Below are positions 27,611 through 28,012 of a DNA stretch of 64,000 nt, piece after piece. Every line of letters begins with the position of its first letter. Position 1 is the stretch's first letter. The stretch comes from Escherichia coli. GTDB lineage: Bacteria > Pseudomonadota > Gammaproteobacteria > Enterobacterales > Enterobacteriaceae. The DNA lies in NCBI RefSeq assembly GCF_051903065.1, contig NZ_CP178438.1; one strand, 5' to 3'. Made by a program: the position numbers and the translations under genes. The notes under the pieces are model-generated. The model did not search any database. It was not told where the DNA came from and saw only the letters and a list, made by a program, of their open reading frames with translations.

Positions 27611-27882
27611 TATGTCACCGGCGTTTCTTCGCCAGTGTAAAAGTATACTTTTTAGCCGCAATATTTTTGTCATCTCAGACGATTTTTTATCGCAATCCAG
27701 AACGGTGTACGGCTCGATAACGCTGCAATCTTGCGCATCGACGATAACGTTTGCGCATCAATTGCCTGGTTTTTCATCGTCAAGACAATAAAAGAGAAAA
27801 AAGCAGCAAACTTCGGTTGAAAAAGCCGCTATGATCGCCGGATAATCGTTTGCTTTTTTTACCACCCGTTTTGTATGCGCGG

Positions 27883-27898
27883 AGCTAAACGTTTGCTT
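27883..27898. promoter_or_regulatory. Candidate PurR box upstream of ghxP
   Basis: aGCTAAACGTTTGCtt matches the palindromic pur-box core GCAAACGTTTGC; related AACGTTTGCGC (27746-27756) and AACGTTTCGC (27942-27951) copies nearby. Confidence 0.4.
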
Positions 27899-28012
27899 TT
27901 TTGCGACGCACCAAATTGTCGCAAACCTGGAGCAGGAAGATAACGTTTCGCTGGCAGGGGATTGTCCGCCACGCATCTTGACGAAAATTAAACTCTCAGG
28001 GGATGTTTTCTT

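Follow-up and report, generated by a model that had tools for sequence, protein, structure and literature searches.

How many PurR operators precede ghxP (yjcD), the gene for the guanine/hypoxanthine:H+ symporter of Escherichia coli, and what else is encoded in the DNA in front of this gene, are the questions raised by the repeated ACGTTTGC motifs upstream of it. The window analysed here is a stretch of 64,000 nucleotides with the gene order soxS-soxR-sraL-ghxP-yjcE, in which soxS (26594-26917) lies on the minus strand and soxR (27003-27467) and ghxP (28013-29362; ORF and RefSeq annotation) lie on the plus strand, and the 545 bp from the soxR stop codon to the ghxP ATG (27468-28012) are intergenic. 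The segment 27400-28100 is found in 5,420 of 5,426 complete E. coli genomes. Alignment of the window with MG1655 is gapless, with 3 substitutions in 321 bp and none within the boxes described below, and window positions are converted into NC_000913.3 and U00096.2 coordinates by adding 4,250,466 and 4,248,489, respectively. An earlier interpretation of this DNA, hereafter referred to as the sequence-only reading, had flagged three motifs in 27700-28012 as resembling PurR operators, which would fit repression of a purine importer in response to purines, and had expected the sRNA SraL/RyjA on the opposite strand of the same region. This Hfq-binding sRNA is indeed encoded on the minus strand of the same intergenic region (27460-27600; Rfam RF01408, 153.3 bits, E 2.8e-35, exceeding the gathering score of 39; annotated as ryjA, b4459, in NC_000913.3 of MG1655), but it lies 100 bp outside 27700-28012. 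Its terminator, identified by a terminator scan at 27461-27491, overlaps the final soxR codons. SraL thus shares the soxR-ghxP intergenic region with the motifs but does not overlap any of them, as it is located 140 bp upstream of the first PurR box and outside the operator cluster. Pairing of SraL with the ghxP leader was considered and rejected, the duplex energy being equal to the mean for shuffled leaders and 144 of 300 shuffles being equally good.

Control of ghxP by PurR has been established by previous studies. The ChIP-chip region designated 'ryjA/yjcD' (U00096.2 4,275,855-4,276,485, corresponding to window 27366-27996) was bound by PurR with a log ratio of 2.08 in the presence of adenine, and no peak was found without adenine (Cho 2011, PMC3159470, Table 1). 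The yjcD promoter was reported to contain a PurR motif, with PurR-dependent repression by adenine cited and a 4-fold drop in the presence of HAP (Kozmin 2013, PMC3809563). Furthermore, ghxP belongs to the PurR-1 iModulon (Sastry 2019; Rodionova 2021; PMC6892915, PMC8376909). RegulonDB had no entry for PurR at this gene when Sastry 2019 appeared. The purine-dependent repression proposed in the sequence-only reading is supported by these ChIP-chip, adenine/HAP, and iModulon data and is correct but already known; as first noted, PurR at ghxP adds nothing new to the ChIP-chip, RegPrecise, and iModulon record. The published single-site calls differ source by source (-272, -130, or -76). The motif listed for the ChIP-chip region is ACGATAACGTTTGCGC (U00096.2 4,276,230-245, window 27741-27756) (Cho 2011, PMC3159470), and a regulon inference of 2015 noted that AGCTAAACGTTTGCTT at -130 (27883-27898) matches the RegPrecise regulon and proposed AAGATAACGTTTCGCT at -76 (27937-27952) as an additional PurR site (PMC4576408). 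Each of the three flagged motifs had therefore been called a PurR site before, by different sources, and the one listed for the ChIP-chip region is what the sequence-only reading counted as a further copy, not its good match. Since the sliding window of the ChIP-chip analysis was 300 bp (Cho 2011, PMC3159470) and is too coarse for this purpose, occupancy cannot be assigned among three boxes that lie within 160 bp. No PurR footprint or EMSA on the ghxP boxes was found in the searchable literature.

The motifs were evaluated with a position weight matrix derived from 27 ChIP-chip motifs (Cho 2011, Table 1), from which the yjcD site was excluded in order to avoid circularity, and both strands of the 64-kb window, comprising about 128,000 positions, were scanned. 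Direct reading of the letters placed aGCTAAACGTTTGCtt at 27883-27898, AACGTTTGCGC at 27746-27756, and AACGTTTCGC at 27942-27951, exactly where the sequence-only reading had them. The first of these positions, described there as a good match to the pur box, obtained the top score in the window (O3; AGCTAAACGTTTGCTT, 27883-27898; 18.9 bits, exact p 2.3e-7), and the second belongs to a 16-mer that ranks next (O1; ACGATAACGTTTGCGC, 27741-27756; 18.35 bits, exact p 3.6e-7); the best match elsewhere reaches 12.4 bits. Both scores fall inside the range of 12.2-24.8 bits of the 27 ChIP sites in the matrix, and both boxes fit the imperfect 16-bp palindrome ACGNAAACGTTTGCNT and have CpG at the centre; the motif at 27942-27951 (8.2 bits) falls short of this combination of form and score. 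In addition, when up to 3 mismatches to the consensus ACGCAAACGTTTGCGT are tolerated, 27741-27756 is the sole match in the window. The weight-matrix scoring that had been suggested as a check thus returns two of the three flagged positions as the two best in the window, and of the two further ACGTTTGC-like copies one is part of O1 and the other remains at chance level. Overall, the repeated ACGTTTGC motifs before ghxP are confirmed as real, conserved PurR sites, with the exception of this one copy. A third box, O2 (GGATAATCGTTTGCTT, 27840-27855; 11.0 bits, p 3.3e-5), was overlooked by the sequence-only reading. Its score, which rises to 14.1 bits in species with AGATAAT at the left end, lies below or near the floor of the range of the matrix sites, and about 4 sites of this grade (11-14 bits) are expected per window. 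An origin of the whole cluster by chance in an AT-rich intergenic region might be suggested by 9-mers such as AACGTTTGC, which occur twice elsewhere in the window. However, sites of at least 18.35 bits are expected about 0.05 times per window and about 0.0004 times in the ghxP intergenic region, where two are found, and the boxes are conserved in 80 species and lie in a region with published ChIP binding (Cho 2011). This explanation has a negligible probability and can be regarded as already refuted.

The position of the boxes relative to the promoter distinguishes their possible roles. The promoter scan yielded a sole promoter-like site in the region, a sigma-70 promoter on the plus strand (27817-27846; 10 of 12 positions matching) that consists of the -35 element TTGAAA (27817-27822), an 18-bp spacer, and the -10 element GATAAT (27841-27846). 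Under two conditions, SMRT-Cappable-seq detected a full-length ghxP (b4064) transcript, NC_000913.3 4,278,317-4,279,876 (Yan 2018, PMC6131387, supplementary file 3). Its start at 4,278,317 corresponds to window 27851, or to 27852 if the coordinate is 0-based, on the plus strand and 5-6 nt past the -10 element, and the offset was checked through the gapless MG1655 alignment; the supplements of Kim 2012 contain no start-site entry for ghxP. With +1 set at 27852, O1 spans -111 to -96, O2 spans -12 to +4, and O3 spans +32 to +47. The left half of O2 includes the -10 hexamer, and the box also overlaps the start site; O3 is located inside the transcribed leader of about 161 nt, which carries the Shine-Dalgarno sequence AGGGGA (27998-28003, plus strand) within the block TCTCAGGGGATG, invariant in the alignment. 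Hence, O2 in the core promoter and O3 downstream of the start are placed to interfere with transcription, and O1 alone is not. The possibilities of an additional promoter at O1 and of a divergent promoter were rejected, as no conserved -10 hexamer is present on either strand. Immediately upstream of O1, the alignment contains a further conserved segment, TTGCGCAT (27731-27738), which resembles a lone right half of a pur box, recurs as a direct repeat at 27751-27758, and in most genera has a conserved GTTGC in front of it.

Conservation was assessed in the ghxP locus of 80 species-level Enterobacteriaceae genomes, the upstream regions of which were scanned for the boxes. O1 scores at least 14.6 bits in 79 of 80 loci and is the identical 16-mer in most of them, O2 is present in 78 of 80 in the form G/AGATAATCGTTTGCC/TT, and O3 is present in all 80 (13.2-22 bits). 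The -35 context GTTGAAAA and the -10 element GATAAT show no variation across these loci. More distant relatives, with 85-87% protein identity (loci L083-L090, including the Erwinia type), retain the boxes selectively and thereby indicate the oldest parts of the arrangement. Erwinia-type loci keep the promoter, O2, and O3 and have no O1; L085 (Enterobacteriaceae bacterium ESL0689) has O1 and O2 at 99 bp and no O3; L088 and L089 carry all three boxes with the 99-bp O1-O2 spacing; and L090 has O2 alone, with a leader of 42 nt. O2 is accordingly present in Erwinia and in all of the distant loci L083-L090, even in those without O1 or O3. Overlap with the -10 hexamer accounts for this conservation in part, and since the invariant right half CGTTTGC lies outside the hexamer, O2 is conserved beyond the need of the promoter. 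From these comparisons, the lowest-scoring box is the universal core of the arrangement and the most widely conserved of the three.

These data bear directly on the simplest reading of the literature, in which one working operator, either O1 (the motif of the ChIP-chip study) or O3 (the RegPrecise site), controls ghxP, and the remaining ACGTTTGC-like motifs are bystanders. One motif is given per region in the ChIP-chip study, as for most PurR targets (Cho 2011, Table 1), the supplement of the 2015 inference contains -130 as the only site matching RegPrecise (PMC4576408), and the boxes are not separable at ChIP-chip resolution. However, a single operator is difficult to reconcile with the retention of all three boxes in 78-80 of 80 species although the flanking sequence has turned over, with the persistence of O2 in every distant lineage, including those without O1 (Erwinia) or O3 (L085, L090), with the invariance of CGTTTGC outside the -10 element, and with p values of about 3e-7 for O1 and O3 each; we consider it quite improbable. 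The conservation and positions of the boxes instead argue for three real operators at ghxP, among which the promoter-overlapping O2 had been overlooked before.

A further feature of this three-operator arrangement is the distance between O1 and O2, the start positions of which are separated by exactly 99 bp in 78 of 78 loci. The 83-bp spacer (27757-27839), which contains the -35 element and phased A/T tracts, has no insertion or deletion and a mean column identity of 72%. By contrast, the O2-O3 distance varies from 42 to 205 bp and the distance from O3 to the ATG from 114 to 190 bp across loci. Between O1 and O2, AA/TT dinucleotides show a periodicity with a peak at 10-10.5 bp (0.75 versus 0.17 +/- 0.04 in shuffled sequences), which suggests phased A-tracts and is to be taken as a hint because the sequences are related. 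At 10.5 bp per turn, 99 bp corresponds to about 9.4 turns, a value at which phasing of the two boxes is not evident. PurR is a dimer that is not known to loop DNA or to bind cooperatively, so the fixed distance has no established mechanism, and the geometry is unusually rigid for a repressor thought to be a simple dimer.

The remaining flagged motif, AACGTTTCGC at 27942-27951 on the plus strand, behaves differently from the three boxes. The corresponding 16-mer (27937-27952), proposed previously as the -76 site, reaches 8.2 bits (minus strand; p 1.3e-4) or 4.8 bits (plus strand) and, as a pur box, does not exceed chance, since about 17 equal sites are expected per window; at least 9 bits are reached at this position in only 4 of 80 species. 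The segment pairs with the left half of O3 and constitutes the 3′ strand of an RNA helix, P2, described below. This downstream strand has G or A where the pur box requires C, which indicates that it is conserved for pairing and not for PurR. The third copy is thus a strand of an RNA helix instead of a credible PurR operator, and PurR probably has no operator at -76. In L086, the corresponding partner strand, ACGGAAACGATTACGT, is complementary to the O3 of that locus and is itself a strong pur box (17.5 bits), which hints that the P2 partner strand may descend from a fourth operator.

Recognition of some of the motifs by another repressor of the LacI family, such as RbsR or CytR, was also considered. 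The right half of the rbsD operator TCAGCGAAACGTTTCGCTGA recurs unchanged in the E. coli segment AACGTTTCGCTG (27942-27953), and GTTGC/TTGCG repeats upstream of O1 loosely resemble CytR half-sites. However, the RbsR resemblance is confined to a half-site, its CGCT version is restricted to Escherichia and some Citrobacter and Enterobacter and covaries with O3 as RNA pairing predicts, and binding of RbsR or CytR at ghxP was not found in the literature. An RbsR site at the third copy was rejected on these grounds, and a role of either repressor at this locus is very unlikely; PurR at O1, O2, and O3 continues to be the preferred assignment.

The helix to which the third copy belongs is part of a structured core of the ghxP leader, a three-way junction of about 106 nt (27873-27978, plus strand) with covariation support. 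It comprises P1 (27873-27879 with 27972-27978, plus 27881 with 27970), P2 (27883-27892, AGCUAAACGU, the left half of O3, with 27943-27952, ACGUUUCGCU), and the hairpins P3 (27900-27907 with 27918-27925) and P4 (27957-27961 with 27965-27969), all on the plus strand. This explicit fold was evaluated on a MAFFT alignment of 73 leaders, in which standard pairs occupy 91.8% of cells; sliding the 3′ partners by 1-3 columns lowers this share to 51.7% or less. Changes on both sides occur in 16 pairs (144 cells), and the observed covariation score was reached by none of 500 column shuffles. Covarying pairs include six of the seven P1 pairs, with variants such as GUAUGCG/CGCAUAC, GUAUACG/CGUAUAC, UAAGCG/CGCUUA, and GUCUGCG/CGCAGAC, and all five core pairs of P3. 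P2 contains two covarying pairs and nearly all of its signal comes from one of them (column 25-113: C-G 27, U-A 25, U-G 13, other 8), which joins position 3 of O3 to the third copy; variation in P4 is mainly one-sided. When the leaders of Citrobacter, Klebsiella pneumoniae, and Enterobacter cloacae are folded singly by minimum free energy, each independently yields the same three-way junction, and the E. coli fold is consistent with it for P1-P3. The covariance model, which was derived from 60 leaders, has exactly one match per locus in 79 of 80 loci, including leaders with insertions of 20-60 nt, which are located in loops, and no other match in the 64-kb window or the xanQ-guaD-ghxQ locus. 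The counts from the model-based alignment agree with the fold, such an alignment being biased towards the model. That it is the ghxP mRNA strand which folds is indicated by the excess of G-U pairs over A-C combinations (GU/UG 135 versus AC/CA 30). An additional helix, P2b (UGCU 27894-27897 with AGCA 27931-27934), was set aside, being invariant and mis-registered in the alignment, and the junctions contain almost no conserved unpaired nucleotides except GGCA. The fold and O3 occur together, as both are missing from L090 and L085. No earlier description of a ghxP leader RNA was found in the searchable literature on ghxP/yjcD, which covers few subscription journals, and the conserved, covariation-supported fold is apparently undescribed.

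Several known modes of leader-mediated control were compared with this structure, and none was supported. A search of 27600-28060 against the Rfam families at E values up to 10 returned two irrelevant weak matches, both upstream of the promoter, and no match in the leader to a purine riboswitch or another known cis-regulatory family. An intrinsic terminator or attenuator is not indicated, since the plus-strand scan of the leader was empty, the SraL terminator being the sole one found; the supplements of Adams 2021 contain no ghxP 3′ ends. A weak GCGGA/UUUGC hairpin followed by U6, predicted by RNAalifold, has no covariation, and the predicted folds do not consistently occlude the Shine-Dalgarno region. 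A leader peptide was rejected because the ATG of the 22-codon upstream ORF of E. coli (ATG 27875 to TAA 27941) is lost in Enterobacter, Kluyvera, and others. Control by CsrA, suggested by three conserved GGA motifs, is likewise not supported, as ghxP has no CsrA CLIP-seq peak (Potts 2017, Supplementary Data 6). In the csrA mutant, ghxP changes alongside xanP, adeP, codB, tsx, and sdaC (Potts 2017), and the effect on ghxP is probably indirect because it shifts together with transporters of the PurR regulon. Finally, the paralogue ghxQ has no comparable leader: guaD ends 35 bp upstream, so that ghxQ lacks a separate leader, and no match to the covariance model is present there.

Against this background, the alternative in which O3 and the third copy are mainly pairing strands of a cis-regulatory leader RNA, either riboswitch-like or protein-binding, with binding of PurR at O3 being secondary, can be weighed. 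It draws on the covariation and the independent minimum free energy folds of P1-P4, the covariation of O3 position 3 with the third copy, the joint presence or absence of the fold and O3, and a precedent for dual control, as the functionally analogous permease gene pbuG of Bacillus subtilis is controlled by both a repressor and a guanine riboswitch. However, O3 scores 13-22 bits with the PurR matrix in all 80 species, a far better match than pairing alone would call for, and O1 and O2 lie outside the transcript; a match in Rfam, a plus-strand terminator, a 3′ end in Adams 2021, consistent sequestration of the Shine-Dalgarno sequence, and a known ligand or binding protein are all lacking. This alternative is unlikely, and O3 is preferably regarded as a PurR operator that is embedded in an RNA helix. 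What the RNA does is the weakest part of the interpretation; our best guess is that it may be a constitutive structural element of the mRNA that affects stability or translation and is not a sensor. Only a low probability is given to the bolder proposal that 27873-27978 encodes a previously undescribed cis-regulatory RNA of the Enterobacteriaceae, possibly purine-responsive, that would provide post-initiation control on top of the triple-operator switch with its 99-bp O1-O2 spacing.

The reading that we consider highly probable is that three PurR operators surround the sigma-70 promoter of ghxP and exert negative feedback on the importer, with the leader RNA as a separate element. When hypoxanthine or guanine is plentiful, the PurR-corepressor dimer would occupy the ghxP boxes. 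PurR at O2, on the -10 element and start site, would block RNA polymerase directly, judging from its position, and PurR at O3 (+32 to +47) may act as a downstream roadblock to promoter escape or elongation, by analogy with the purB and purR operators. O1, separated from O2 by 99 bp across phased A-tracts, would most likely raise or stabilise occupancy of the promoter by the repressor. Since GhxP imports hypoxanthine and guanine, the corepressors of PurR, the feedback would be direct, and the importer would limit its own synthesis. We infer these roles of the individual boxes, as well as that of the RNA. What this analysis adds to the known PurR control is the triple operator with its overlooked core box, the rigid 99-bp geometry, the reinterpretation of the -76 'site' as a strand of an RNA helix, and the conserved leader. 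The last of these is a structured 5′ leader, absent from Rfam and overlapping an operator for a transcription factor, in a heavily mined organism, and, if the bolder proposal were true, the leader RNA would constitute a second, post-initiation layer of control on a guanine/hypoxanthine importer.

The arrangement can be compared with four known systems. The first is the E. coli PurR regulon itself (purF, purHD, glyA, xanP, and adeP), which is controlled by this repressor of the LacI/GalR family with hypoxanthine or guanine as the corepressor. The ghxP boxes share its palindrome ACGNAAACGTTTGCNT with central CG, the ghxP region is occupied in an adenine-dependent manner, and this purine-related gene is repressed in concert with the pur genes. 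The sequence of O2 is similar to that of the glyA box AGGTAATCGTTTGCGT, and many pur operators overlap core promoter elements (Cho 2011, PMC3159470), as O2 does. By contrast, ghxP has three boxes instead of the one motif listed per region, and one lies in the -10 element, one lies 100 bp upstream at a fixed distance, and one lies in the leader. The second system comprises the roadblock operators of purB and purR, where PurR binds inside the ORF and blocks elongation (Cho 2011, PMC3159470). O3 is also located downstream of the start, although it is much nearer to it (+32 to +47) and in an untranslated leader, and its function as a roadblock is a presumed one. The third comprises the auxiliary operators of lac (O1/O3) and gal (OE/OI), in which a promoter-proximal operator and an upstream operator are about 100 bp apart; the ghxP O1-O2 DNA, with its conserved spacing and A/T phasing, resembles DNA of this type. 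Looping by LacI depends on the tetramer and that by GalR on HU, whereas PurR is known only as a dimer and is not known to loop DNA. The fourth comprises the pbuG and xpt-pbuX leaders of B. subtilis, in which a hypoxanthine/guanine permease gene is likewise preceded by a repressor site and a structured 5′ leader, the guanine riboswitch (RF00167), and this riboswitch and the ghxP leader both have the topology of a three-way junction. The two differ in that the ghxP leader has no Rfam match and no evident terminator or Shine-Dalgarno-sequestering platform, and in that the PurR of B. subtilis is a protein unrelated to that of E. coli.

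The leader of ghxP, the gene for the guanine/hypoxanthine importer, contains a conserved three-way-junction RNA fold (27873-27978, plus strand) supported by covariation, in which the transcript copy of the third PurR operator (box 3, 27883-27898) is paired with the third repeat noted in the sequence-only reading (27942-27951), the 3′ strand of helix P2. The fold at 27873-27978 has no match in Rfam, and no earlier description of it was found in the literature. The 5′ part of the leader, between box 2 and the outer helix P1, carries lineage-specific insertions of approximately 45-160 nt in Klebsiella, Raoultella, Kluyvera, Superficieibacter, Pseudocitrobacter, and others (loci L026, L036, L038, L039, L041-L043, L047, L051, L053-L059, L072, and L074-L080), some of which contain GC-rich hairpins, and box 3 and the structured core are unbroken downstream of the insertions. 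In L086, a distant ghxP lineage, the leader holds two mutually complementary pur boxes, UAAUCGUUU and AAACGAUUA (at -138 and -73 relative to the ATG; approximately 1863-1943 in L086), which suggests that helix P2 originated from two operators within one transcript. The E. coli leader additionally contains a 22-codon upstream open reading frame (27875-27943, plus strand; MRGAKRLLFCDAPNCRKPGAGR*), which is probably not a leader peptide because its ATG is not conserved in other genera.

Upstream of the leader, the distance from box 1 (27741-27756) to box 2 (27840-27855) is exactly 99 bp, with zero indels in 78 of 78 species; the spacer concerned is 27757-27839, together with its counterparts in L001-L080, L085, L088, and L089. 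Despite this fixed length, sequence conservation of the spacer is only approximately 72%. AA/TT dinucleotides within it show phasing with a period of 10-10.5 bp. A dimeric PurR is not known to have a mechanism that would account for a fixed distance between the two boxes. Just 5′ of box 1 lies a conserved element, GTTGC-N4-(A)TTGCGCAT (27722-27738), and TTGCGCAT(C) recurs as a direct repeat 20 bp farther downstream, where box 1 ends; the element may represent an isolated half of a pur box or be bound by a different factor.

As for other RNAs in the window, the terminator hairpin of the sRNA SraL (27461-27491) overlaps the final codons of the convergent soxR, and the two genes have 8 bp in common. 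A match to naRNA4/CssrE, a nucleoid-associated noncoding RNA family, is located at 34838-34909 (plus strand; Rfam RF02564, 76.9 bits). Regarding the public records, ghxP of L001, labeled "Bacillota bacterium MAG," is 100% identical to that of E. coli, and the soxR-ghxP DNA of both L001 and L076 (labeled "Chryseobacterium sp.") is plainly enterobacterial; the two records are likely contaminated or misbinned.

In E. coli, AACGTTTCGCTG (27942-27953), which spans the third repeat, has exactly the sequence of the right half-site in the rbsD (RbsR) operator TCAGCGAAACGTTTCGCTGA (L091, 421-440), a likeness that comprises a half-site only and is found in some genera only.
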